DNA of 42,506 nucleotides from Nitrospirota bacterium (GCA_029858565.1 JAOUEV010000029.1:1-42506); one strand, 5' to 3'. Numbered from the stretch's first letter, positions 27,918-41,270 are shown. Translations and numbers: made by a program. The notes: a model not told the origin generated them from the letters alone.

Positions 27918-29858
27918 ATGCGAGAAGCGAATGCACGGGTATACAGGGCCCTTTGCTCTGTATACCTTTTTTTTGCTCTCTGCCTGACACTTTCCCCGGC
28001 GACCGCAGCTGCGGAGGCTGATTATCCCTCCACGCTTGTCGAAGCAGGGAGAGCTCTCCGGCTTGCTGACGAACGATACTGGAATATCCTGCTCCATTAC
28101 AAGAAAAGCGGTTCCGGAAGGGAAAGTCTGGTCGATGACCCCGTATTTTTCCTGTCGCCTGCGGGAAAGACCGATCCCGAGGCCGAACTTGAGGCGACCA
28201 TCAGCGGTCTTTTCCAGGGGCCGGAGCTTGGCGACGACCATCCCCGTTGCCGTTTTCCCGCCCGATCCGCCTGGCTCGTAGAGCAGCTGTCCATTGACGC
28301 GTCTCGCCTTACGCCGGTAGTCTGCGCGGCTTACGACGAGTCCATGCGGAACATCACGATGCGTTCAGCGGTCCTCGTGTTCCCTGCGGCCCACGGCAAT
28401 GGTCCGGCATCCATGTTCGGCCACACGCTCATCCGCATCGACAGCACTGTTCAGAGCGATCTCATGTCCTACGCGGTGAACTACGCGGCAAAGATGGAGG
28501 ATGACAGCGGGCCGGTCTATATATTCAAAGGGCTGTTTGGCTTCTACAAAGGGCACTACTCCATCCTGCCCTATTACGAGAAGGTCAAGGAGTACAGCGG
28601 TATCGAGCATCGCGACATATGGGAGTATCGTCTGAACCTGACCGAGGACGAGATACGTCGGATGGTGATGCATATCTGGGAGTTGCGGCAAACCTACTCG
28701 GATTACTATTTCTTTACGGAAAACTGTTCGTATAACCTGTTATTCCTTCTTGAGGCAGCCCGGCCCTCGCTTGATCTGACCGATCCTTATCGGAATCGTG
28801 CCCGCTTCTGGGTCATTCCCGGTGATACGATCCGGACGTTGACGGAGAACAATGCAGTGGCCAGCGTGAAGTATCGGCCATCCCTTGCGACAGGAATCGC
28901 CGTGCGGGCCCGCGCTCTGGTAGCTGACGAGCAGGTTCTGGCTGTCGCACTGGCTGAGGGAAGGATGAAGCCGGCGGAGATGGGTGGGCGGACATCCTCC
29001 CCCGAGCGGACAGCCCCGGTGCTCGATCTTGCGGCAGAGGTCCTCCAATACCGGTATTCGAAAAAAGAGCTGGACCGCGAGGTCTATCTTCAGCGATACC
29101 TCTCGGTCCTGCGTGCACGGAGCACTATTGCGGAGACAAGCAAGGACCTGTCCGCAATTGCTGAGCCGCCGACGCAGCCGGAACTGGGACACCGGGCCGC
29201 CCGGCTGGCGATGGGGGCCGGCTGGCGGTCGACGAACGAACGAAGATGGTTCGCGGATCTCTCAGTGCGTCCGGCATATCACGATCTCATGGACCCTGAT
29301 GACGGGTATGTGGAGGGCGCGCAGATCAACTTCTTTGACCTGGGAGCACGGTATGAACCGGACAAGGGCAGTCTGACGCTTCAGAAGATGCATATTGTTG
29401 ACATCCTGTCTCTAGCGCCTCGCGACCGCTTTTTTGCACCGGTCTCCTGGAAGTTTTCAACGGGACTAGATCGTGTCTTGATGAAGGACGGAAGCGAACG
29501 GCTGGTCTTTCGCGTCAATCCAGGAGGCGGCGCGGCTTATCGTTTCCCCGGCCGCGGTCTTATTTACGCTCTGTTCGAATCCGATGTCCAGTTGTCCAAC
29601 GTTTATGAGGACCGCATGTCGCTCGGGGTCGGACCTTCTGTCGGTCTGGACGTGGTTCCTTCCGGTCGATGGAAATCCAGCATCCAGGCGGCTGCTTTGG
29701 CTTATTTCCTGGGAGAGACGCACCGGATAGTGTCCGGCATATTCATGCAGAGCTGGATGATCGATGCCAACAATGTCATATCGCTGAAAGCGAAGCGGGA
29801 AAAAACGTTTCGACACTATGGGACGGAAGCCGTGTTGTCATGGAATTGGTATTTTTAG
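27918..29858 (+). CDS. DUF4105 (Lnb N-terminal-like) protein with C-terminal beta-barrel
   Basis: WNILLHY, CRFPAR, PASMFGHTLIRI, YSGIEHRDIWEYRLNL, YYFFTENCS and RPAYHDL. The C-terminus has amphipathic strands ending WNWYF. Confidence 0.85.
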   Translation: MREANARVYRALCSVYLFFALCLTLSPATAAAEADYPSTLVEAGRALRLADERYWNILLHYKKSGSGRESLVDDPVFFLSPAGKTDPEAELEATISGLFQGPELGDDHPRCRFPARSAWLVEQLSIDASRLTPVVCAAYDESMRNITMRSAVLVFPAAHGNGPASMFGHTLIRIDSTVQSDLMSYAVNYAAKMEDDSGPVYIFKGLFGFYKGHYSILPYYEKVKEYSGIEHRDIWEYRLNLTEDEIRRMVMHIWELRQTYSDYYFFTENCSYNLLFLLEAARPSLDLTDPYRNRARFWVIPGDTIRTLTENNAVASVKYRPSLATGIAVRARALVADEQVLAVALAEGRMKPAEMGGRTSSPERTAPVLDLAAEVLQYRYSKKELDREVYLQRYLSVLRARSTIAETSKDLSAIAEPPTQPELGHRAARLAMGAGWRSTNERRWFADLSVRPAYHDLMDPDDGYVEGAQINFFDLGARYEPDKGSLTLQKMHIVDILSLAPRDRFFAPVSWKFSTGLDRVLMKDGSERLVFRVNPGGGAAYRFPGRGLIYALFESDVQLSNVYEDRMSLGVGPSVGLDVVPSGRWKSSIQAAALAYFLGETHRIVSGIFMQSWMIDANNVISLKAKREKTFRHYGTEAVLSWNWYF

Positions 29859-29896
29859 GAAGGGGAACTGATGACAGGAAAATGGGAAGACCGGGG

Positions 29897-29932
29897 AAAA
29901 AACCCTTGTGACACCGTGGTCACAGGGGTTTT
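29897..29932. terminator. Bidirectional terminator between convergent genes
   Basis: AAAAAACCCTTGTGAC-accgtg-GTCACAGGGGTTTT. Confidence 0.8.
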
Positions 29933-29938
29933 AGCGTT

Positions 29939-31309
29939 TTATTCGTCCGATTTCCCGTTCCCCTGATACAGCTGGGGCGTCTGCTCGTTATTGAAGATCT
30001 TGCGGGAGATGCGCGAGACCTGGGGTTTCAAATAGCTGAACAGGTCTTTCACGTTCAGACTCCCGTTCTGTCCCACCACATCCTCCTCTTTTATTCCTTT
30101 CAGGAGAAAATAGGTGAAGAGACCATGGCCCTTGTCGTCATAGCTGGAGCTTATCTGGTCGCCTGACGAGGCTGAGAGCACGACCACGCTCTTTGCCAGC
30201 GGCGCCGTGGTCTTCAGGTTCATTACCAGCGGTCGGGAACCTTTTGCCAGGACCGACCGGCCGCCTGCTCCGGAGAAGCAGGAGTCGAGCGCCACGATCG
30301 TTTCCTTGTTCTGCAGCTTATTGAGAACGTCATACATCCTTTTCAGGGAGTACCCTGTCTGTTTGATGAAGGTCGGGTCCCCGTCGTAGGGAACCAGATA
30401 CGCGCTGCCGGACTTTGGATCAGGCGCTCCGTGGCCGGAATAATAGATGAACACCGAGCTCTGGGGCTCCACGTTGTTCGTGAGCCACTGCTCGAAATAT
30501 TTTTCCATGTCGCTTTTAAGCGCCCGATCGTTGATCAGGGTGATCACGTTCTCTTCGGGATATCCCAGGACATTGATCAGGTAGCCCGCCATGGTCTGGG
30601 CGTCATTGGCCGCGAAGTCTGCGCGCGGGAGCTTCTGGCGATACTCCTCGATGCCGATCACGATGGCGTACGCGTCTTTCCTCTTCTTCACCTGGACCTG
30701 GGGGATCTGGTCGACATCCGATATCCCTCCGCGAGCAGCAGCGGGCGCATGTTCGCCGCGGTCAGCAACAGAATCGCGGGAGGACGCGGAGGCCGGGGCG
30801 TTCGCGCGTGCCATGCGGGCAATAGATGCAAAGGAGGGGTTTTCCAGCAGCTTTGATGCAAGCGCTTCTGCCGCGGTTTTCGCGTACTGCGAGCCCTCGG
30901 GCCCGTAAGTTTTGAAGTTTCCTCCGCGCCCTTGTTCTGTGTAATCAACCGTGAGTAATATCTGCTCGTTTTGCATCAACGCAAGAGACGTTTTGTTGAA
31001 AACAACCCAGGCATTTACGAAAATCGTGTGGACTTCGGTTTCCGTGCTAAAGCGGATTTCAATGTCGTACGGCACGCTAGAGGAATTGACGACCTTGAGG
31101 CCTTTTTTTAGAAGGATTTTTCGTAGCTCATAGTTGAGGTCATATCCCAACTGGCCGACAATACTTCCTCCGTCTCCCTTGATGTCGATGTGTTCGGAAA
31201 GGAAGAATGTAGTATCAGGTGATGCCGCAAAGCAGGGCGTCGCAATACAGATAAACAAGAAAACAACAGCCAAGGTTATCCGGCAGGATCTGACGAAATG
31301 GATGGTCAT
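29939..31309 (-). CDS. Exported caspase-family (peptidase C14) protein
   Basis: Signal peptide, AIVIGIEEY, FAANDA, YYSGHG (His), LDSCFSG (Cys), GHGLFTYFLLKG and EQTPQ. Confidence 0.9.
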   Translation of the reverse strand: MTIHFVRSCRITLAVVFLFICIATPCFAASPDTTFFLSEHIDIKGDGGSIVGQLGYDLNYELRKILLKKGLKVVNSSSVPYDIEIRFSTETEVHTIFVNAWVVFNKTSLALMQNEQILLTVDYTEQGRGGNFKTYGPEGSQYAKTAAEALASKLLENPSFASIARMARANAPASASSRDSVADRGEHAPAAARGGISDVDQIPQVQVKKRKDAYAIVIGIEEYRQKLPRADFAANDAQTMAGYLINVLGYPEENVITLINDRALKSDMEKYFEQWLTNNVEPQSSVFIYYSGHGAPDPKSGSAYLVPYDGDPTFIKQTGYSLKRMYDVLNKLQNKETIVALDSCFSGAGGRSVLAKGSRPLVMNLKTTAPLAKSVVVLSASSGDQISSSYDDKGHGLFTYFLLKGIKEEDVVGQNGSLNVKDLFSYLKPQVSRISRKIFNNEQTPQLYQGNGKSDE

Positions 31310-31343
31310 TGTGGCTTATCCCCATGCTAAAAGTGAGGTAATA

Positions 31344-31387
31344 AACAAGGGGAAACCGTCCGTTAATCGGAGCTGTTTCCCCTTGTT
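31344..31387 (-). terminator. Hairpin, possible terminator or attenuator between lipoprotein and caspase genes
   Basis: 13-bp stem AACAAGGGGAAAC/GTTTCCCCTTGTT with a short T-rich tail on the minus strand. Confidence 0.55.
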
Positions 31388-31433
31388 ATTGCTACAATTC
31401 ACGGTAATGAGAATTCGGCGAGATCCAGGCTGA

Positions 31434-31961
31434 TCAATTGACCTTTACATCGATCTTTGCTTCAGCCGATTTTTCGCTCGATTGCTTCAGGGTTTTGATC
31501 GTGCCCTTATAGCCGGTGACGGTGACGTTAAGCGTTTTGAATATAATGAAATCATTCAACTCGGTAATATATCGCGGAGCAACGATGATATCTGCACGGG
31601 ACCGGCTTACAGCATCATAGGCCGCTGCATCCCTGACCGTTCCTTCATGTCCCGTCGTCGCTTCTTTTAACGCTGCAAACAAGCCGGTGTCGCTTCCCGC
31701 AGCACCGGTGGCGCCGTAACTCACACCGTCTGCGAACTTGTCGGGCATAAGCAAACCTTTAGGTGCGATACAGAAGCAGAGAACTGTACCCGAGGCTGTA
31801 CCTGATATTTTCTCGCCTACTTCAATTTCTGCCTTGATATGGACAGGATCTACACTCGTGCCACCCCACGGACCGCTGAACTGACTCTGATGGGTGCTGG
31901 TACAACCGCTTGCGATTACGAGCATAATGAACATTCCGAAGATAATAGACCGAGTCTTCAT
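31434..31961 (-). CDS. Small lipoprotein (TRL/YbjQ-like fold, tentative)
   Basis: GAGGGGG SD, lipobox ASGC, and AAAYDAV...ADIIVAPRY...VTVTGYKG. Confidence 0.7.
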   Translation of the reverse strand: MKTRSIIFGMFIMLVIASGCTSTHQSQFSGPWGGTSVDPVHIKAEIEVGEKISGTASGTVLCFCIAPKGLLMPDKFADGVSYGATGAAGSDTGLFAALKEATTGHEGTVRDAAAYDAVSRSRADIIVAPRYITELNDFIIFKTLNVTVTGYKGTIKTLKQSSEKSAEAKIDVKVN

Positions 31962-32145: not shown

Positions 32146-32949
32146 TCAGTTCAGTTCCTTGGCCTTAATGTTGGGGATGGTGGGAGGTAGAAACAAGCTG
32201 GCAGGCAGCTCATGGTTTGCCATGTAGTCGCTCAAATAAATCACGCTTTTCGTTGCACCGCCCTCTCGTGCGCCGTAGATGACCTGTATTTCTCTCGGTA
32301 TCCAGAATCCTGCGAAGATTTCCGTGAACTGTTTTGCCGACGTGCGCAAAATTAGATGCTCTTCCGAATCAAATATCTCAGCTCGAAGCAGGGAGGTCTG
32401 AGCGGGATCGATGTAAATAATGTGTTTTGGATCGCTGTACTCCATCCTGATGGCGTTGTGTCCATCGAACATGACCTGGCTGACCTGAACCGGATTGTTA
32501 TGCAGGTCGGCGGCATTCTCTATGGTAAGTCCAGGAACGGCAACGGGGGCCAATACCTTGTTGATCAGTTGACTCTTTTCGAAAGGCGGGAGCTTTTTGA
32601 GGTGGATCTGCGACAAGGAGCGAGTCGCGGGAATGTACTCATAAAGGGAATCGTCGTTGACGAGCACGAGTCGCTCGGAAGGAACAAAATAATCAATCCG
32701 GATGCTGTTCGGCCTTCTGTAGCGAAAACGCCATTTTTCCTCGGTCTTGTGGTTCTTGTTCGTCGTGACACGTTTGACCGTGAAGGACAGGGTCTCCAGA
32801 GAGGCGAACTTCTTCACCAACTGTCCGATGATCTGGTCAGCAACCGTTGTTGCGGAGGCAGCTGCATGACTCGAAGTTGATATCAGCAGGATGGCCAGGA
32901 CGACGAGGCCTCTGATAGCATTCATGCATCGTGAACCCGTTCTTATCAT
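32146..32949 (-). CDS. LolA-like periplasmic carrier protein (paralogue B)
   Basis: AGGAG SD, signal peptide, FRYRRPNSIRIDY, VNDDSLYEYIP, GFWIPREI and LPASLF. Confidence 0.75.
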   Translation of the reverse strand: MIRTGSRCMNAIRGLVVLAILLISTSSHAAASATTVADQIIGQLVKKFASLETLSFTVKRVTTNKNHKTEEKWRFRYRRPNSIRIDYFVPSERLVLVNDDSLYEYIPATRSLSQIHLKKLPPFEKSQLINKVLAPVAVPGLTIENAADLHNNPVQVSQVMFDGHNAIRMEYSDPKHIIYIDPAQTSLLRAEIFDSEEHLILRTSAKQFTEIFAGFWIPREIQVIYGAREGGATKSVIYLSDYMANHELPASLFLPPTIPNIKAKELN

Positions 32950-33025
32950 GAAGCGCTCCTGTAAGTTGAGTAGCAGGAAGAAAGTGGCAAGGAACAACGG
33001 GGCTTCACCTTAATCCGTGGCTTTC

Positions 33026-34021
33026 CTAAAAGCTCATCTGGAATGCGGTGATGAAGCCGCCCGATGGCGCGGCGGAGATGCTGATGCGGTACTGTGAGTC
33101 GATCCGGTCAAAGTAGTGCTTGTCCGCCTGCCGGTTATAGGCGTGGGCGCCGCTTATGGCCGTAAAGATATTCCCTGAATACCAGCCAAGCTCGAAGAAC
33201 GCGAGGATGCCTGCTGCAACGTGGTTGCCATGATCGTTCGTTCTAACGGCGCCCCAGAGAAAGAGGCCGTTCAGAAGAAAAGAACCCAGCGCTTCCTTGG
33301 GACGTTCGATATACAGATGTCCCGCTCCGGGAACGATGGCCAGCGCTCCAGCCAGATAGGGCGACTTGCGCGGAATGTCGCCGGCGCGAAGTGCTTCTTC
33401 GGCGAGGCCGTTTCCCTGCTGAGCAAGCGGGGAGTCAGGCGGCAATTTCCTGAACTCTTCCGCTGCGCGGGCCGCGCTCCCCTGGCGAAGGTGGCACCAG
33501 CCAAGCCTGATATGCGCCGCGTCCACCCTGCCGCTATGCGGATAGGAGCGGAGAAAGGTCTCCCACCCGTCGATCGACGACTGGTACTCGCCTTTGCGAT
33601 AGTAGGTCTCGGCCAGCATGAACTGTGCCTGTTCTCCCAGGGGATCCGAGGGAAGGTCCATTACCAGGGTGCGGAAACGCTCGATGGCCTGCGTGTATTT
33701 CCCGCTCTGGAAGTATGAACGCGCGATCTGGAAACGGGCGGTCTTTGCCTCCGGTGTTCCCGGATGGAGGAACATGACGCGTTCGTATTCCGTGATGGCG
33801 CGATAGTAATCCCCCTGCGCGTACAGATGATCAGCAAAGGACAGCAGATCTCTGCCGGCGCTGTCCGAGCTCAGGGCCGGCATGGTTGTGGTGAGCAGCA
33901 TCAGTGCCGCGATGAGGCCGATGCGGATCCATCCTGTCGCAGGGCGACCGGATGCAGTGGGTCCCGGTTCCGGCGCGTGCGCGGAGGATGCTGAAAACTC
34001 TATCCTGGGTTGATTGTTCAT
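33026..34021 (-). CDS. TPR protein with C-terminal TM2/P13-like membrane domain (paralogue B)
   Basis: BamD/YbgF-like TPRs (DYYRAITEYER, AQFMLAETYY), KSPYLAGALAIVPGAGHLY, hydrophobic helices and a terminal ITAFQMSF. ATG overlaps the upstream TGA. Confidence 0.8.
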   Translation of the reverse strand: MNNQPRIEFSASSAHAPEPGPTASGRPATGWIRIGLIAALMLLTTTMPALSSDSAGRDLLSFADHLYAQGDYYRAITEYERVMFLHPGTPEAKTARFQIARSYFQSGKYTQAIERFRTLVMDLPSDPLGEQAQFMLAETYYRKGEYQSSIDGWETFLRSYPHSGRVDAAHIRLGWCHLRQGSAARAAEEFRKLPPDSPLAQQGNGLAEEALRAGDIPRKSPYLAGALAIVPGAGHLYIERPKEALGSFLLNGLFLWGAVRTNDHGNHVAAGILAFFELGWYSGNIFTAISGAHAYNRQADKHYFDRIDSQYRISISAAPSGGFITAFQMSF

Positions 34022-34572
34022 CGTGGTTGCTCCTCAGACAGGCCCTTCCATGCTTCATTATCAGGGTCCTTGCGCATCTCGTCCTTGATCTGTTCACGGG
34101 CTGTTGAACCCTCGAACCGGTCATGCACATAATCCCTGTCGATCCTGCCTGCTGCTTTGTAGGCTTGATAGGCGTCCTTGTACCGTTTTTGACGGAACAG
34201 CGAAACTGCGAGATTATAAGCGGCCTTTACGTACCGCGGTTCCAGCTCGAGCGCTTTCCGGAACAATGCTTCGGCCTTCTCGTACTCCTTGAGGCGCAAA
34301 TGGGTCGCTCCCAGATTGTTATGGGCAACTGCGTGGCGCGGATCGGTCTTGATGCAGCGGTTCAGCGCATCAATGGCGGCCGGCAGACGGTCCAATTTGT
34401 AATACGCAAAACCGAGTGCGTTCAAATAGTGAGGGTTGTCCGGGTCCTTCTGCAGCAGTGCGGTATTCCGGTCCACATCCAGGGTAAGCTGTTCCGAGGA
34501 CGGTTCCTGCGCCGCATGTGCAACAGAACAGCAGCGTGTCACTATGATGATAAACAAGAGAAAAGATCTCAT
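34018..34572 (-). CDS. Exported TPR protein
   Basis: Signal-like N-terminus MRSFLLFIIIV, YLNALGFAYY, AHNNLGATH and AAYNLAVSL. Confidence 0.85.
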   Translation of the reverse strand: MRSFLLFIIIVTRCCSVAHAAQEPSSEQLTLDVDRNTALLQKDPDNPHYLNALGFAYYKLDRLPAAIDALNRCIKTDPRHAVAHNNLGATHLRLKEYEKAEALFRKALELEPRYVKAAYNLAVSLFRQKRYKDAYQAYKAAGRIDRDYVHDRFEGSTAREQIKDEMRKDPDNEAWKGLSEEQPR

Positions 34573-34855
34573 ACGCTGAAGGTTTTCAGGGCGCCCCGGA
34601 GCAGGGGATGCCAAACAGGGCCGAGTTCGCTGAACAGACGTACAATAGAGCATGGGATTTGAATTGTCAACCCTTGAAAACCTTGTTTGCCTTTCTTTCG
34701 GGAGTCTGTTATAGTATGCCGACCAGAGCGGGAACCAAGATGTTGCTTGAAGACTTTCGTGTCGTATTTCCATCGGCGCGGTCTGGGTTTTCTCAACGTT
34801 ATTACAGGGTTTTTGTACTTGACAATATTCCGGGCCGATGCTACACATACACCAT

Positions 34856-35647
34856 ATGGGTAATAGACGTTTCGGGGCGGGATATGTCCTGCTTGCGGCG
34901 ACGGTTCTGGCTGTCGGAATGTTCACGGCGGGCATTTCCCGGGCCTCTGAACCTTCGGCAGGCGAGCTGTTCCGTGAGATCGAAGGGCGTTACGACCGAG
35001 TCTCCACCTTGTCATACAAAGTAAAACGGATTGTCGCATCAAAGACATCGAGTACCGAAGAACAGTGGAGTTTTCGCTATCGAAGCCCCGATCTGTTGCG
35101 AATCGACTATACAGTGCCTCATGACCGAGTGATAGTCGTCAACAATGAAGCTCTTTGGGAATATGTTCCCCGTGCTAAAAAAGCGGCCAAGACAGTTTTT
35201 GCCGCCATGCCAAGGGGAAAAAAAGAAAAGACCATTGCGCAGGTGATGGCGCATGTGACCGTGGACGGACTCCGGATCGGCAATTACGCCGAGATGGAGA
35301 AGAAAGCGGTCAAGGTCAAGACCGTCTCTTCGTCGGGCATATCTGCTTATCAGGTAGAGGGTGTCGATCCGCGGTATGTGATCACGATCGACCGCGAGAA
35401 AAAAGTTCTTCTGCGATCAGAGATCTATGATAAAAAGGGGGCGCTCGTGCTCAGGACCGAGGCGAGCCGTTTTGTTGAGGCAGGGCCGGGGTTCTGGATG
35501 CCTCGCGAGATCAAGGCAACCTATGCAACTGCCACAGGATTCGTCCAGAGCACGGTCCTCCTCTCCGATCAGCGTGCAGACGGTCCGGTAGAAGAAAAAG
35601 CGTTCAGCTTTGTTGTTCCACAGGGTGTGGAATTGATCAACTACTAA
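34856..35647 (+). CDS. LolA-like periplasmic carrier protein (paralogue A)
   Basis: Signal peptide, FRYRSPDLLRIDY, VNNEALWEYVP, GFWMPREI and FSFVVPQGVELI. TTGACA lies at 34819. Confidence 0.8.
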   Translation: MGNRRFGAGYVLLAATVLAVGMFTAGISRASEPSAGELFREIEGRYDRVSTLSYKVKRIVASKTSSTEEQWSFRYRSPDLLRIDYTVPHDRVIVVNNEALWEYVPRAKKAAKTVFAAMPRGKKEKTIAQVMAHVTVDGLRIGNYAEMEKKAVKVKTVSSSGISAYQVEGVDPRYVITIDREKKVLLRSEIYDKKGALVLRTEASRFVEAGPGFWMPREIKATYATATGFVQSTVLLSDQRADGPVEEKAFSFVVPQGVELINY

Positions 35648-35668
35648 AGAGAAGGAGGTGAACAGAGT

Positions 35669-35950
35669 ATGAAGAAGATCCTGGTGGTGATGGTAGCGGT
35701 GATGATGGTGATGACGTCGGTCCTGGCCGGTGCTGCGTTGGCAGCAGATGCGGGTGCTGCGGCGGTGCTTTCGTGCGCGATCCCGGGAGCGGGTGAGTGG
35801 TACAATGGGAATTTCAAGGGCAGCTTCCCGTGGCTGGAGTGTATCGCTGGCAAGATCTGCTTCTGCGTTGCGATAGCTTCGGTGTTCGACGCGGCGGCGG
35901 GCAAGTCTAGCGACTCAATGCGGATCGATTTCTGGTCAGCGCCCAAGTAA
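35669..35950 (+). CDS. Small exported hydrophobic Cys-containing protein with TM2-like motif
   Basis: Strong SD AAGGAGGT, signal peptide ending ALA, AAAVLSCAIPGAGEWYNG, four Cys, and its own terminator. Confidence 0.8.
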   Translation: MKKILVVMVAVMMVMTSVLAGAALAADAGAAAVLSCAIPGAGEWYNGNFKGSFPWLECIAGKICFCVAIASVFDAAAGKSSDSMRIDFWSAPK

Positions 35951-35980
35951 CCGGGCAGGTTTCATCAGTTCAGCATTTAT

Positions 35981-36021
35981 CCATGAGAGGATGGCATACC
36001 CATCCTCTCATGGTTTTTTTT
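35981..36021 (+). terminator. Rho-independent terminator
   Basis: 14-bp stem CCATGAGAGGATGG/CCATCCTCTCATGG followed by T8. Confidence 0.9.
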
Positions 36022-36032
36022 GGCTGGAACGG

Positions 36033-36944
36033 CTAGAATCGCATGGTAAAAGCGAGCGCGGCTGTCCGGTCATTGTCCAGCAAGAGCGAAAAACCATACT
36101 GGTTCGACAATCTCTCAAGATACCCCTGCTGCCGGTCCCTGTTGTATTTGTGAGCACTGCTTACCGCGCTGTACACATTTCCAAAATACCAGCCTGTTTC
36201 GAAAAAGAGCAGTACCCCGGCGGTCGTGTGGCTGTGGTTGTGCAGGGCTTCCGCTGTCGCCCATATGAAAACTCCATTCATCATGAACGAAAGCAGCGCG
36301 TCATATTTTCTGCCAACATAGAGCTGGCCTGCGCCGGGAAGGACCGCGGACAGTCCGCCTGCGAGGGCTGGTGATTTGGAGGGGACGGCGGGATAGGTTT
36401 TTGCTTCGGTTGAGAGCCACAGCGCCTGCTCCCGAAGGGGAGAAGAGACGGGAATGCTGTCGTATTGCATGGCAGCCCTGCGCCAGTCGCCTTGCCGTAG
36501 ATAGGACCAGCCGATCTGGATGCGCGTTGCGTCCGCTTCCGGGGCATCGGGGTGGTTCCGTAAAAAACGTTCGTAGCAGGCGATGGCCTGCGTGTAATCC
36601 TTCTTCTGGAAGTAGGCCTCGGCGATCCTGAGCAGAGCCTGCCTTCCCTGCTCGTCAGCCGGGTGCTTGTCCGCGAATTTCTCGAACAACCGGATCGCGT
36701 CGTCCAGCCTGTCGCCCATGTAATAGGACAATGCGATCTGGTATTGCGCGTACGCTGCCTGGCCGTGGTCCGGGAAGTGGAAGATGAATCGTTCATACTC
36801 CGTGATCGCCCGGAAGTAGTCTCGTTCAGCAAAAAGCTGGTCTGCGAAAGAGAGTGTGGCCTCGGCGGACCGGATGTCCGCATATCCCTTTGCAGGCGTT
36901 CCCAAAGCAAGGACGGCAAGAGTGATGAGGAGTAGCCGTTTCAT
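36033..36944 (-). CDS. TPR protein with C-terminal TM2/P13-like membrane domain (paralogue A)
   Basis: Signal peptide, DYFRAITEYER, KSPALAGGLSAVLPGAGQLYVG and a terminal ALAFTMRF. ATGA overlap with the yidD-like gene. Confidence 0.82.
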   Translation of the reverse strand: MKRLLLITLAVLALGTPAKGYADIRSAEATLSFADQLFAERDYFRAITEYERFIFHFPDHGQAAYAQYQIALSYYMGDRLDDAIRLFEKFADKHPADEQGRQALLRIAEAYFQKKDYTQAIACYERFLRNHPDAPEADATRIQIGWSYLRQGDWRRAAMQYDSIPVSSPLREQALWLSTEAKTYPAVPSKSPALAGGLSAVLPGAGQLYVGRKYDALLSFMMNGVFIWATAEALHNHSHTTAGVLLFFETGWYFGNVYSAVSSAHKYNRDRQQGYLERLSNQYGFSLLLDNDRTAALAFTMRF

Positions 36945-37432
36945 TTGCGGGTCCACCAGAAATCGTTGTTATCCAGCGGGTCGAGGTAGCGCAGGCGGTC
37001 CCCGAAGTTCTTCTGGCGGGCAAGGCGCTGTTCGTCCGCTTCGTGCAGGAGCCGGTCTGTGGTCATGACGATGCCGATGACCGGTCCGTGCTTGCGAATG
37101 GCCTGAACGCTGTACTGGGAACAGGTGGGATGCATGGGGCAACGATCGCCATCCAGAGGTGATACGAAGTTCTGATAGATCTTGAGCATCCAGGAAAAGG
37201 GGGTCGCGGCCATTGATGTTTCGTGCTTTTCCGCGGATGGCCGTGCAGGCCGTTCACGGTCAGCTTTCGTCAGGATCACCGGTGCGTCGCTGTTCACGGA
37301 CCACGGTCCCCACGGTTCCGCGCCGATCGCCAGGTCAGGAGCAATGAGCAACAGCGCGAGCACGATGAATCCTGCCGGGTTCCCTGGGGACCGCATTGAG
37401 CATTTTTCGTTTGATGCGAGAAACACCTTCAT
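36941..37432 (-). CDS. YidD-like (membrane protein insertion efficiency factor) protein with N-terminal signal/TM extension
   Basis: YQNFVSP...CPMHPTCSQYSVQAIRKHG...DRLL...YLDP, preceded by a hydrophobic segment FIVLALLLIAP. Start is 37432 or 37396. Confidence 0.8.
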   Translation of the reverse strand: MKVFLASNEKCSMRSPGNPAGFIVLALLLIAPDLAIGAEPWGPWSVNSDAPVILTKADRERPARPSAEKHETSMAATPFSWMLKIYQNFVSPLDGDRCPMHPTCSQYSVQAIRKHGPVIGIVMTTDRLLHEADEQRLARQKNFGDRLRYLDPLDNNDFWWTRK

Positions 37433-37765: not shown

Positions 37766-38494
37766 ATGAATAAAATCCTGCTCATAGTGCTGTTCGCCTT
37801 CCTTGCCGGTTGCGCCAAGGAGCCGCCCTTCGATCCGGTCGCCGTGTTCAAGGATGCCGAAGAGAAGATGCGCAAGGAACGGTACGAGGACGCGCGCAAG
37901 GCCTACCAGGAGATCCAGGAAAAAGCTCCTGACCGGAGCTATGACGCGGACATCATGCTGAGGATCGCCGATACCTATTTCGGCGACGAAAAGTACAGCG
38001 AAGCGCTGGTCGAATACCAGTCCTTCCTGAACTTCCATCCCGTGCATCGCGACGCGCCCTACGCGCAGTTCCAGAAGGCCATGTGCAGCTACAAAGAGCT
38101 CACGACCATTGACCGTGACCCCGGTCTCGTGCGCGCGGCGCTCAAGGAGTTCCAGACCCTGCTGGAAAAGTATCCCAACAGCACCTACGAGGCGCAGGCC
38201 AGGTCCTACGTCTCCATCTGCAGGGACCGTCTGGCCGGGTATGAGCTTTACGTGGGCCGGTTCTATCACAAAAAAGGGTCCTACCGCGCTGCGATCGGTA
38301 GGCTGGAGAAGCTCGTGGCCGACTATCCCGGATCAGGCTCAGAAAAGGACGCGCTTCTCTACGCCGGCCTTTCCCATATGGAACTGGGAGAAAAGGCCGA
38401 AGCTCGGCAGACCTTTGAAAAGCTGACATCCCGGTATCCTTCCATGGCGGATCAGGTCACCCCCCTCATCACCAAGCTCAATACGCAGCCCTGA
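37766..38494 (+). CDS. bamD: Outer membrane protein assembly factor BamD
   Basis: Lipobox LAGC, TPRs, FLNFHP, IDRDP, YELYVGRFY and YRAAIGR. Confidence 0.9.
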   Translation: MNKILLIVLFAFLAGCAKEPPFDPVAVFKDAEEKMRKERYEDARKAYQEIQEKAPDRSYDADIMLRIADTYFGDEKYSEALVEYQSFLNFHPVHRDAPYAQFQKAMCSYKELTTIDRDPGLVRAALKEFQTLLEKYPNSTYEAQARSYVSICRDRLAGYELYVGRFYHKKGSYRAAIGRLEKLVADYPGSGSEKDALLYAGLSHMELGEKAEARQTFEKLTSRYPSMADQVTPLITKLNTQP

Positions 38495-39227: not shown

Positions 39228-41270
39228 CTACTTGGCCGCGCCGACAGCGGCCTTGATGGCTTCCTGGATCCTTGGCGCGTTGGGATGGTGCAGGAGGGCG
39301 TTGTTCAGGACGCCGAGCGCCTTGGCCTTGAGGCCGCTCTTGAGGTAGAAGCTGCCCAGTTCCAGATGATGCTCGATCCTTGTCTGGTCGAGCTCAAGCG
39401 CTTTTTTGAGCGGTTCCTCCGCTTCCTCCCGTCTGCGGGCGATGCGCGAGAGGGTGACGCCGTAATAAAAATGATATTGCGCCTGCGCCGGGTCCAGCCG
39501 GACCGCGGCGGCAAAGGGATCGACCGCCAGACCGAAATTGTTCGTGCGGAAATCCTTGAGCCCCTTGTTGAACTGCTCCAGGGCCTGCGCCGCCTTTTCC
39601 TTGCTTACCGCTGGAGTTCCCTGTCGTGACGGCCCTCCCGGGCCCTTGGCCTTCGCATCCTTTGTTCCGGCGTCGTAGATCACCGGCGCGAGCTTTCCTT
39701 CCCCTGCCAGAACGATCGCTTCCTGGACCTTGTCGACCCAGGAAACCTGCTCCAGCGCGGCATTCAGCACGCTGAGCGCCCGCGTCTTGAGCCCGCTCTT
39801 CAGATACAGGTTGCTTAACTCGATATGATATTCCACCTTCGTGGCGTCGAGCTCGATCGCCTTTTGGAGGACCTCTTCGGCTTCGTGCTTGCGCCTCGGT
39901 ATGTTCGCCAGGCAGATCCCGTGGTAGAAGAAGTACGGAGCCTTGATGGGGTCCATGCGGCTGGCCCAGGCGAATTTTTCCTCGGCGCCCCAATAGTTGC
40001 CGATCTTGAATTCCTTTAATCCCTCGGAGAACTGCTCGGCCGCGCGCGCAACCTTTTCCGCGTAGTTCTCCTGGTATTCCTCGGCACGTTTCTCAACGAA
40101 ATCGCCGCCGGACGGTCTCTGTGCCGCGGCGGGCGCCGTGGACCGGGTATTGCTCCGGTCGTAGGCTTCCCGCTTCGACGGATTGCTGAGAGTGTCATAG
40201 GCTTCGTGGATGCGGGTGAAGAGCGCCTCGAGCATGCTCTTGAGGTCGGCCATGGCAGCGTCGAAATGCCTGTCCGGATGGTACGCTTTTGCCAGTCGGA
40301 AGTAGGCATGCTTGATATCCGCCGCTGTCGCGGTCACCGCTACGTTCAGGACCTCGTAGTGGTTCTGGCGGGCAAGCGCTGTGTGGGCCTCTTGGATGGA
40401 TTCCCTGGTGACGACGATCTCAGGCTCCGCCCTGGCCCGTCCCCGCTGGGCTTCCTCGGACCGGACCGCAGCCTGGACCGCGCTCCGGGCGTCCTCCATT
40501 TCCTTTTCGCTCTTGATAGCGCCGATCTCGGCCATGCGGAGCGCGAGCAGAAGGTAGACAGCCTTGAGGGCATTGAAGTCGCCCACCCCGGAAAGCGAGC
40601 AGACCTCCTCGATGCTCCGTTTGCCGTCCACGAGCCCGAAAACGGTCCGCTGGTCCCCGGTCAATTGCGCGTCCTGGAACAGGCAGGACGGATCAGTAGC
40701 GGGACGGATAACCGTGTCCGGAGAGGGAAGGGATTTTCTCACGATCTGCCAGTCAAGGGCATTGACGCCTTCGAGCGTAAGGTTGCCGGTGCTCATCTGG
40801 AGCGGAATGATCTCATCCGCCGGTAGCGGGCCCTCGTCGAAGCGGTAGGTGCCGAGGCGAAGGTCGAAGAGGCTCAGAACGATCGCCTTGACCTGGTCCT
40901 TCACGCCTGCCACGAGGTCCTGGGGCGAAAGAAATCCCATCTGCACGAGCAAGGCTCCCTGTTTCTTTCCGGTCTTCTCGATCAGTTCGGACAGGGCGTC
41001 GTACTGGGCGCGGGTCAGCTTTCCCCCGCTCAGCAGCCGGTCGCTCAGGTGATCAGCAGGCAGTGTTGAGGCCGCGAAAATGATGTCGCCGTTCTTGAAG
41101 AACACTTTTTTTACGATAGGCAGCGCGGTCTGTGTCTGTACATATTCGAACAGGGCCGTGCCGGTCTTTGACTGGATGCGGAGAGCCTGGAAGAACCAGG
41201 GAACGGTCATCTGGCGGATCTCGCCGGACAGGGGGAAGGAGTTTTGCTCCTTGCAGGAATTCTGGGCCAT
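39228..41270 (-). CDS. DUF4388-J-domain-TPR protein
   Basis: N-terminal KKVFFKNGDIIFAAS...LSDRL, J domain NHYEVL...AYFRLAKAYHPD, and two duplicated TPR blocks. Confidence 0.88.
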   Translation of the reverse strand: MAQNSCKEQNSFPLSGEIRQMTVPWFFQALRIQSKTGTALFEYVQTQTALPIVKKVFFKNGDIIFAASTLPADHLSDRLLSGGKLTRAQYDALSELIEKTGKKQGALLVQMGFLSPQDLVAGVKDQVKAIVLSLFDLRLGTYRFDEGPLPADEIIPLQMSTGNLTLEGVNALDWQIVRKSLPSPDTVIRPATDPSCLFQDAQLTGDQRTVFGLVDGKRSIEEVCSLSGVGDFNALKAVYLLLALRMAEIGAIKSEKEMEDARSAVQAAVRSEEAQRGRARAEPEIVVTRESIQEAHTALARQNHYEVLNVAVTATAADIKHAYFRLAKAYHPDRHFDAAMADLKSMLEALFTRIHEAYDTLSNPSKREAYDRSNTRSTAPAAAQRPSGGDFVEKRAEEYQENYAEKVARAAEQFSEGLKEFKIGNYWGAEEKFAWASRMDPIKAPYFFYHGICLANIPRRKHEAEEVLQKAIELDATKVEYHIELSNLYLKSGLKTRALSVLNAALEQVSWVDKVQEAIVLAGEGKLAPVIYDAGTKDAKAKGPGGPSRQGTPAVSKEKAAQALEQFNKGLKDFRTNNFGLAVDPFAAAVRLDPAQAQYHFYYGVTLSRIARRREEAEEPLKKALELDQTRIEHHLELGSFYLKSGLKAKALGVLNNALLHHPNAPRIQEAIKAAVGAAK

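Follow-up and report, generated by a model that had tools for sequence, protein, structure and literature searches.

A conserved gene pair encoding an exported YidD paralogue and a tetratricopeptide repeat protein with a P13-like membrane domain in Nitrospirota and other bacteria

The locus considered here lies at positions 32146-37432 of a 42,506-nucleotide stretch of DNA from a Nitrospirota bacterium (GCA_029858565.1, JAOUEV010000029.1), and this whole stretch is referred to below as the window. At its core are two genes, one encoding an exported paralogue of YidD (YidDx) and the other a protein (TPRTM) that joins a tetratricopeptide repeat (TPR) domain to a C-terminal membrane domain resembling the Borrelia protein P13. 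Across many phyla these two genes are inherited together; in most cases they are translationally coupled, and in some they are fused. The individual families are known and their association is not; the literature, as represented by titles, abstract openings and passages, yielded no account of an exported YidD, a TPR-P13-like protein or this gene combination. It is proposed, tentatively and somewhat short of probable, that the pair builds a P13-like helical membrane assembly in which periplasmic YidDx is an assembly factor or a subunit, and in which a LolA-like protein and a small protein, small93, also play a part.

The evidence for the core pair comes from gene neighborhoods. Among the GTDB species genomes that served as the wider set, 90 stretches encode a TPRTM relative, and 80 loci were kept. 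These come from Nitrospirota, Desulfuromonas, Geobacteraceae, Desulfobacteraceae, Syntrophaceae, Verrucomicrobiota, Lentisphaerae, Kiritimatiellia, Entotheonella, Nitrospinota, Schekmanbacteria and Spirochaetia, and include Citrifermentans bremense R1. YidDx adjoins TPRTM in 53 of the 80 loci, lying directly upstream on the same strand in 50 and directly downstream in three. Closer to the window, a full-length TPRTM is encoded by 8 of 24 other genomes of the organism's taxonomic family and by none of 16 from other families of the phylum, and all eight of these loci have YidDx immediately upstream, on the same strand. The YidDx type (186-207 bits, full length) occurs in exactly the 9 of 41 genomes that possess a full-length TPRTM, and the remaining 32 have canonical YidD only (73 bits or less) or no match. 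Because these genomes are kin, this co-occurrence is a pattern and not a statistic. A preliminary description of this DNA had expected its genes to occur together elsewhere, and gene-neighborhood and phyletic profiling bear this out through the adjacency of YidDx and TPRTM, their identical distribution and their fusions.

Natural fusions were found in two phyla and are of two kinds. The first is a 375-residue open reading frame (ORF) from a spirochaete (genome G092), in which a signal peptide is followed by YidD (54.5 bits), a TPR-like middle and a P13-like domain (77 bits with the profile of the TPRTM C-terminal domain). Immediately upstream of it is a P13-family gene above the Pfam cut-off for Borrelia_P13 (32.2 bits vs 25), the two genes together occupying L123:7180-8979; this neighborhood is one point of likeness between the module and P13. 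The second comprises four clusters of 410-425 residues, one of them named Spartobacteria, with the same domain order (105-110 bits with the YidDx profile and 110-115 with the C-terminal domain profile). Given this domain order, YidD and the TPR domain, both N-terminal to the membrane domain, are expected to share one compartment.

Within the window, the locus has the following features:

36941-37432, minus strand: YidDx, the exported YidD paralogue, 163 residues; an alternative start at M13 (position 37396) is possible.
36033-36944, minus strand: TPRTM_A, 303 residues, with a signal peptide, a BamD/YbgF-like TPR domain and a P13/DUF5683/TM2-like membrane domain.
36941-36944, minus strand: ATGA overlap of the YidDx stop (TGA) and the TPRTM_A start (ATG), read in the sequence; translational coupling.
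35669-35950, plus strand: small93, 93 residues, with a signal peptide and a mature part of about 65 residues.
34856-35647, plus strand: LolA_A, a LolA-like periplasmic protein; the ORF opens at 34838, and the 263-residue form from 34856 is recorded in Atlas.
34018-34572, minus strand: stand-alone TPR protein, signal-bearing, 184 residues from the MRSFLL start; the ORF reaches 34935, with TPR_1 and TPR_2 matches.
33026-34021, minus strand: TPRTM_B, a TPRTM_A paralogue of 331 residues, in which a 32-residue N-terminal extension precedes the hydrophobic segment.
32146-32997, minus strand: LolA_B, a LolA_A paralogue; the ORF has 283 residues, and the start is likely 32949 or 32925.

All seven ORFs of the preliminary description are present, and the coupling of the yidD-like gene to the first TPR-membrane protein that it reported was confirmed. 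YidDx and TPRTM_A, transcribed in this order from the minus strand, converge with LolA_A and small93, which follow one another on the plus strand. The TPR, TPRTM_B and LolA_B genes stand in series on the minus strand, with an overlap of the first two that amounts to 4 bases by coordinates. TPRTM_A and TPRTM_B are 41% identical over 300 residues (E 1e-78), LolA_A and LolA_B are 38% identical (E 2e-55), and the window genome contains only two P13-like domains, the second of which is that of TPRTM_B. The window holds the canonical set of four, a TPR gene of the upstream type and a further TPRTM-LolA pair, TPRTM_B and LolA_B, which is a local, lineage-specific duplication. The counts across relatives show that the core consists of two genes, with small93 and the LolA-like gene as an accessory pair. 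A stand-alone TPR gene is found upstream of YidDx in 6 of the 80 loci, and homologues lie upstream of it on the same strand in L015 and L022. Consequently, the earlier interpretation stands only in part. Its co-occurrence, its motif homology, its P13-like domain and its link between YidDx and TPRTM hold, and its single seven-gene system does not. Gene multiplication like that in the window is also seen in two loci of Lentisphaerae metagenome-assembled genomes (L050 and L052), where the canonical set is joined by further TPRTM paralogues (a second and a third), another LolA-like gene and a YidD-domain protein of greater length (268-297 residues).

Export of the products was assessed with an ad hoc and crude rule that asks for a basic n-region, an uncharged 10-residue core with a mean Kyte-Doolittle value of at least 1.9, and small residues at -3 and -1. 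By this rule a signal-like N-terminus is present in six of the seven proteins, for all of which it had been claimed; TPRTM_B is the one that fails. In a run filed as a metatranscriptome, contigs 95-99% alike were found over 33175-33370 and 35674-36134. These are contigs of a relative, with DNA carry-over possible and with no meaning attached to the stretches left uncovered, and they were not counted as expression.

Canonical YidD is a small protein of the cytoplasmic side, encoded between rnpA and yidC. The window genome retains a canonical yidD of 69 residues on another contig, in the order rpmH-rnpA-yidD-yidC, and for this reason YidDx is regarded as a second, N-terminally extended paralogue. 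The two proteins share 34% identity over 47 residues in BLASTP. The YidD core of YidDx passes both curated cut-offs, with 58.3 bits for PF01809 (cut-off 27) and 59.8 bits for TIGR00278 (cut-off 40). An alignment of 42 homologues divides YidDx into a signal-like N-terminus, a conserved WGPWS motif, the YidD core and a family-specific C-terminus (DRLxHExDE...DPxxNNDFWW). In the motif C-x-x-x-P-x-C-S-x-Y, C98, P102 and C104 are invariant among these sequences and S105 and Y107 nearly so; both Cys residues of the YidD motif CxxxPxCS are therefore kept. In contrast to YidD, YidDx has a signal peptide, the WGPWS motif and a linker of about 40 residues. Its PF01809 match spans only profile positions 4-54 of 67, and the family-specific segment DRLxHExDE...NNDFWW stands where positions 55-67 would be. 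YidDx also lies outside the rnpA-yidD-yidC operon, and its partner would be TPRTM instead of YidC. In two Desulfuromonas-type genomes (G042 and G043; loci L103 and L105) a YidDx-type gene is unlinked from TPRTM. There it follows an ORF that, judged by eye and unscanned, we take to resemble a replication-associated AAA ATPase, near ORFs that we likewise take to be rodA- and PBP2-like.

TPRTM_A consists of a TPR domain (about 27-182) and a membrane domain (186-303). Its AlphaFold2 model has a predicted local distance difference test score (pLDDT) of 88.3 as a whole and 91.6 for the C-terminal domain alone. At E <= 0.001 the homologues number 567 proteins, whose source names are only TPR, BamD or "TM2 YozV". 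With the full model, Foldseek returns BamD as the top match (3qky, E 2.9e-6), together with several more BamD chains, and TPRTM_A also passes the curated BamD model TIGR03302 (87.1 bits vs a cut-off of 81.4, with the best stretch at positions 48-122 of 239), whereas TPRTM_B falls below it with 74.3 bits. Despite this likeness, TPRTM matches only a part of the BamD profile, possesses an attached membrane domain and does not have the lipobox Cys; TPRTM_A has no Cys at the predicted cleavage site. The true BamD of the window is encoded at 37766-38494 (plus strand), adjoining the module, as a full-length BamD/YfiO lipoprotein with the lipobox LAGC (PF13525, 140.4 bits, profile positions 6-201 of 203). 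This adjacency was seen in none of the related loci inspected. Other structural matches of TPRTM_A are the YbgF TPR domain 2xev (TMt 0.88, root-mean-square deviation (rmsd) 1.8) and the PpiD-YfgM complex 8zht_B. The ybgF model TIGR02795 scores 61.5 and 66.5 bits, below its cut-off of 90.1.

In the model of the membrane domain, helix 1 (192-209) consists of segments 192-201 and 205-209 with a break at the invariant P-G-x-G, and is followed by helices 213-235 and 239-282 and by a beta-hairpin (283-301) with a terminal F. The domain has short hydrophobic cores, which as family averages cover about 195-206, 217-231 and 241-250, or roughly 12, 15 and 10 residues. Structural comparison of this domain alone yielded no PDB match at E <= 0.001 with Foldseek, and VIA-align against 48,161 chains returned generic long-helix matches only, the best of which (6zsh_C, Z 7.6, rmsd 3.9, 75 aligned) is under the meaningful level for helical models and has no bearing on the novelty of the fold.

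Profile comparison is more informative about the origin of this domain. When the TPRTM membrane domain is aligned with hhalign to the Borrelia P13 family, represented by ten aligned P13-family genes from spirochaete genomes, the match has a probability of 94.1% and an E value of 1.2e-7 over 87 columns that cover helices 1-3. Two ORFs in one stretch (L126) match both the P13 profile and that of the TPRTM C-terminal domain and so bridge the two. When 49 diverse members were scanned individually against Pfam, DUF5683 was matched by 45, DUF6677 by 20, TM2 by nine and Borrelia_P13 by two. At the level of sequence profiles, the TPRTM membrane domain is homologous to P13 and belongs to a P13/DUF5683/TM2-like superfamily. 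The label TM2/P13-like in the preliminary description is right at this level, because of the P13 profile comparison and of the alignment of small93 with the C-terminal domain described below, and no curated cut-off is reached. Specifically, DUF5683 (PF18935) scores 19.3-19.5 bits with the window domain against a gathering threshold of 26.7 (E 0.001, profile positions 3-45 of 151 only). Borrelia_P13 (PF05628) gives no row at E <= 10 with it, and the two family members that match do so at E of about 0.03. TM2 (PF05154) gives no row for the window protein, and the best of the nine matching relatives has an E value of 1.3e-5.

According to passages of PMC6879480, P13 is a porin-active protein of the outer membrane that is predicted to be alpha-helical, forms a homo-oligomer of about 300 kDa and has its C-terminal 28 residues cut off by CtpA. 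By inspection, the families share a signal peptide, a Gly-rich motif in helix 1, a Y..YN+ motif in helix 3 and a C-terminal hairpin with an aromatic end. In contrast, the P13 proteins are small (174-338 residues in the sample) and have no TPR domain. Moreover, channel activity, the oligomer and CtpA processing are known for P13 only (PMC6879480). The likeness to DUF5683 and TM2 is limited to weak matches of the PGxGQxY helix and the next helix, and those families are not equipped with a BamD-like TPR domain. In the literature that mentions DUF5683, no function is described for it.

The C-terminus of TPRTM has a distinctive composition. Of 80 proteins, 68 have an aromatic residue at the very end (F in 63), and the frequency of hydrophobic residues is 0.88, 0.99 and 0.96 at positions -3, -5 and -7, compared with 0.04 and 0.13 at -2 and -4. 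An alternating hydrophobic pattern with a terminal aromatic residue is the C-terminal beta-signal of outer-membrane proteins. The P13-family and DUF5683-type sequences share this ending; for example, the DUF5683-type protein P0169 ends in GLSFSIQF. Three properties of TPRTM point to the outer membrane, namely its short hydrophobic cores, its beta-signal-like C-terminus and BamD as the best structural match of its TPR domain.

The partnership of YidDx and TPRTM is supported by a model of their complex. With the mature proteins the model scores 0.63, and the best of three controls scores 0.00; the mark used for such models is reached by 58 of 80 solved complexes and by 2 of 110 mismatched pairs, counts that are only rough, own alignments having been used. 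At least 44% of contacts are shared between the runs, and the partner pLDDT is at least 61. The modeled interface involves residues 192, 207, 211-222 and 251-270 of TPRTM and the helix 121-137 and tail 155-159 of YidDx. Its conservation is modestly raised when compared with the whole proteins (p 0.026 and 0.009). The preliminary description had suggested multimer modeling of the small protein, the TPR-membrane protein and the YidD-like protein, and the outcome for the latter two favors its pairing of them.

This interface has consequences for topology. K and R abound in both loop 211-215 and segment 265-270 of TPRTM. Under the positive-inside rule, and if the two-pass TM2 domains are taken as a guide, both would be cytoplasmic if helix 1 spanned the inner membrane, and would then be out of reach of a YidDx that bears a signal peptide. 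Because YidDx carries this signal peptide, two readings are left: helix 1 does not traverse the membrane, or the model is mistaken on this point. In the former of these two readings, helix 1 may be interfacial or re-entrant, with the N-terminus, loop 1-2 and the C-terminus all periplasmic. Such a placement of helix 1 agrees with the domain order of the fusions and with the contact made by residue 192.

The main alternative to an outer-membrane assembly is a periplasmic complex anchored in the inner membrane. TPRTM would then be a three-pass protein with its N-terminus out and its C-terminus in, the TPR domain would serve as a scaffold or chaperone in the manner of CpoB/YbgF or YfgM-PpiD, and YidDx would sit at the periplasmic face of the inner membrane. 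The three consecutive hydrophobic helices agree with such an arrangement, as does the concentration of K and R in loop 211-215 and after helix 3, and TM2, which nine of 49 members match, stands for membrane-spanning helix pairs in Pfam. The YbgF (2xev) and PpiD-YfgM (8zht_B) matches would also be in keeping with it, and so would the ybgF scores, though these are below the cut-off. However, hydrophobic cores of only 12, 15 and 10 residues and a beta-signal-like C-terminus are difficult to reconcile with three passes through the inner membrane. The modeled YidDx interface would, in addition, be cytoplasmic, although YidDx bears a signal peptide and, in the fusions, precedes the TPR domain. Finally, the homologue P13 is an outer-membrane protein in the passages of PMC6879480 cited above. 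On balance, this alternative seems unlikely, and it is to be preferred over the lipid-trafficking and toxin explanations discussed below.

The outer-membrane proposal can be put more precisely. TPRTM would form an oligomeric alpha-helical assembly like that of P13, in a membrane, most likely the outer one, that is accessible from the periplasm, with its TPR domain and C-terminal hairpin on the periplasmic side. YidDx would bind the periplasmic face of the membrane domain by means of its DRLxHExDE helix and NNDFWW tail, and would be either an assembly or insertion cofactor or a permanent subunit. Its action on the trans side would mirror that of cytoplasmic YidD on the substrates of YidC and Sec. 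Where present, the LolA-like protein may shield the small hairpin protein small93 in transit until this joins the assembly.

Several observations weigh against this proposal. The window proteins remain under the Pfam cut-offs of P13, DUF5683 and TM2, the conservation of the interface is not raised within the domains (p 0.12 and 0.22), and the topology argument would, with a membrane-spanning helix 1, keep YidDx away from its modeled binding site. No linked YidDx is found in 27 of the 80 loci. Five genomes with an unlinked TPRTM were checked, of which three have a full YidDx-type gene elsewhere (124-127 bits) and one a partial gene (84 bits), but the fifth has canonical YidD only. The best-scoring P13 gene (L119) has no YidDx-type gene within 15 kb. 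With regard to the accessory pair, most loci have neither a LolA-like gene nor small93, and the small93 profile, which finds the window copy, has no match in five TPRTM genomes, four with the linked pair and one (G042) with an unlinked YidDx.

The two accessory genes nevertheless show a connection to the core. The mature part of small93 resembles the first part of the P13-like domain, with a PGAGEWYN helix, FPWxEC and a C-terminal R-x-DFW, and hhalign aligns the small93 profile with that of the TPRTM C-terminal domain over 56 columns (91.8%, E 7.3e-7). The PGAG motif that the preliminary description had noted three times in the translations is indeed there and, by this comparison, homologous and not due to chance. 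On the basis of these profiles, small93 is a cut-down copy of the TPRTM membrane domain. Its family is rare, numbering 29 representatives at E <= 0.001 among 1.84 billion. small93 matches no Pfam or NCBIfam family and has 20 invariant columns in an alignment of 18 homologues. The family also possesses the motif E-C-x-x-G-H-x-C, with two invariant Cys and often His (K in the window copy), which could be a disulfide or metal site. Large repeat proteins (P0166-P0171) were considered as small93 relatives on the strength of weak profile matches and rejected; P0168 is an Ig-like repeat protein, and its match is taken as spurious.

The assignment of the LolA-like proteins is one of fold-family likeness only. 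LolA_A and LolA_B score 27.6 and 27.9 bits with LolA_like (cut-off 30) and 38.4 and 27.3 bits with TIGR00547 (cut-off 112). LolA_A has weak LolA and DUF2092 matches as well, and reaches no LolA-type curated cut-off (TIGR00547/PF03548/PF17131). Its feature neighbors in Atlas are TP_0789-like, LolA and DUF2092 clusters with scores of 0.92-0.94, so that the likeness extends to these families through both kinds of match. In contrast to LolA, the LolA-like gene sits by small93 and not by lolCDE. Among the 80 loci, small93 is found in 18, the LolA-like gene in 15 and both in 13, in several phyla. The distribution of small93 is patchy among relatives, and in nearly all cases the two genes converge with TPRTM, as they do in the window.

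A second alternative gives the LolA-like protein a non-protein cargo. The module would then traffic a lipid, a lipoprotein or another hydrophobic small molecule, carried by the LolA-like protein to or from a TPRTM-YidDx station with small93 as a membrane partner. LolA-like fold families carry lipoproteins or lipids, there is a weak match to the NCBIfam flexirubin LolA2 model (E 5e-6), and envelope-lipid neighbors occur, with BamD in the window and, in L015-L018, neighboring ORFs that by eye and unscanned we take to be LpxC. Such a role is improbable, since a LolA-like gene is present in just 15 of the 65 loci that have at least 1.5 kb of downstream room, adjoins small93 in 13 of these 15, and is accompanied by no ABC or MlaD-type energizing component that recurs in neighborhood clustering. 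The least likely explanation, and a very improbable one, is that small93 is a secreted Cys-containing peptide toxin or bacteriocin served by the other genes for export or immunity, or that the cluster is a phage-exclusion module: small93 is small and rare, with a signal peptide, two invariant Cys and a patchy distribution, but neighborhood clustering (PADLOC not scanned) found no recurrent peptidase, ABC exporter, immunity-like or mobile-element gene nearby, the core pair usually occurs without small93, and small93 is homologous to its neighbor's membrane domain.

The toxin or phage-exclusion role raised in the preliminary description therefore finds nothing pointing to it. The contexts are those of housekeeping envelope genes, and the caspase, Lnb_N and lipoprotein neighbors of the window (27918-31961), considered as members of the system, were rejected because they recur in none of the 80 related loci. 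The first of these neighbors (27918-29858, plus strand) encodes a signal-bearing protein of 646 residues with matches to DUF7843 (216.5 bits), Lnb_N (190.6 bits) and DUF7840 (91.4 bits). Lnb_N is the N-terminal periplasmic domain of the lipoprotein N-acyltransferase Lnb, and the NCBIfam Lnb equivalog model gives this protein just 27.4 bits against a cut-off of 550. At 29939-31309 on the minus strand is a protein of 456 residues with a signal-like N-terminus and a C-terminal caspase domain (Peptidase_C14, 69.3 bits), which scores 85.8 bits with the EACC1-associated caspase model, under the cut-off of 140. On the other side of the module, 39228-41270 (minus strand) encodes a protein of 680 residues with DUF4388, DnaJ and two similar TPR-containing C-terminal halves.

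A broader reading extends the proposal beyond this module, and it is doubtful as it stands. Diderms of many phyla would possess a dedicated route for alpha-helical outer-membrane proteins that is either independent of the beta-barrel assembly machinery (BAM) or assisted by it. P13-like proteins would cross the inner membrane by Sec owing to their short helices, and their beta-signal-like C-terminal hairpin would serve as an address that a BamD-like TPR domain could read. The exported YidD would help insertion and oligomerization from the periplasm, and LolA-like carriers would ferry the smallest subunits. If this were true, proteins with the YidD fold would assist membrane insertion in general, on either side of the inner membrane.

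The placement of alpha-helical proteins in the outer membrane is poorly understood, P13 is among the few reported cases, and its biogenesis factors are not known. The module described here ties P13-like domains to a secreted YidD paralogue, to a BamD-like TPR domain and sometimes to a LolA-like carrier. This linkage, as adjacency, co-inheritance or fusion, is found in Nitrospirota, relatives of Desulfuromonas and Geobacter, Desulfobacteraceae, the Verrucomicrobiota/Lentisphaerae/Kiritimatiellia group, Entotheonella, Nitrospinota and spirochaetes. It provides a first functional lead for the DUF5683-like and TM2-like proteins of bacteria and for YidD outside the cytoplasm. Overall, the module is a testable candidate for the assembly of helical envelope proteins, and it is present in at least one cultured and non-pathogenic organism, C. 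bremense R1 (L034).

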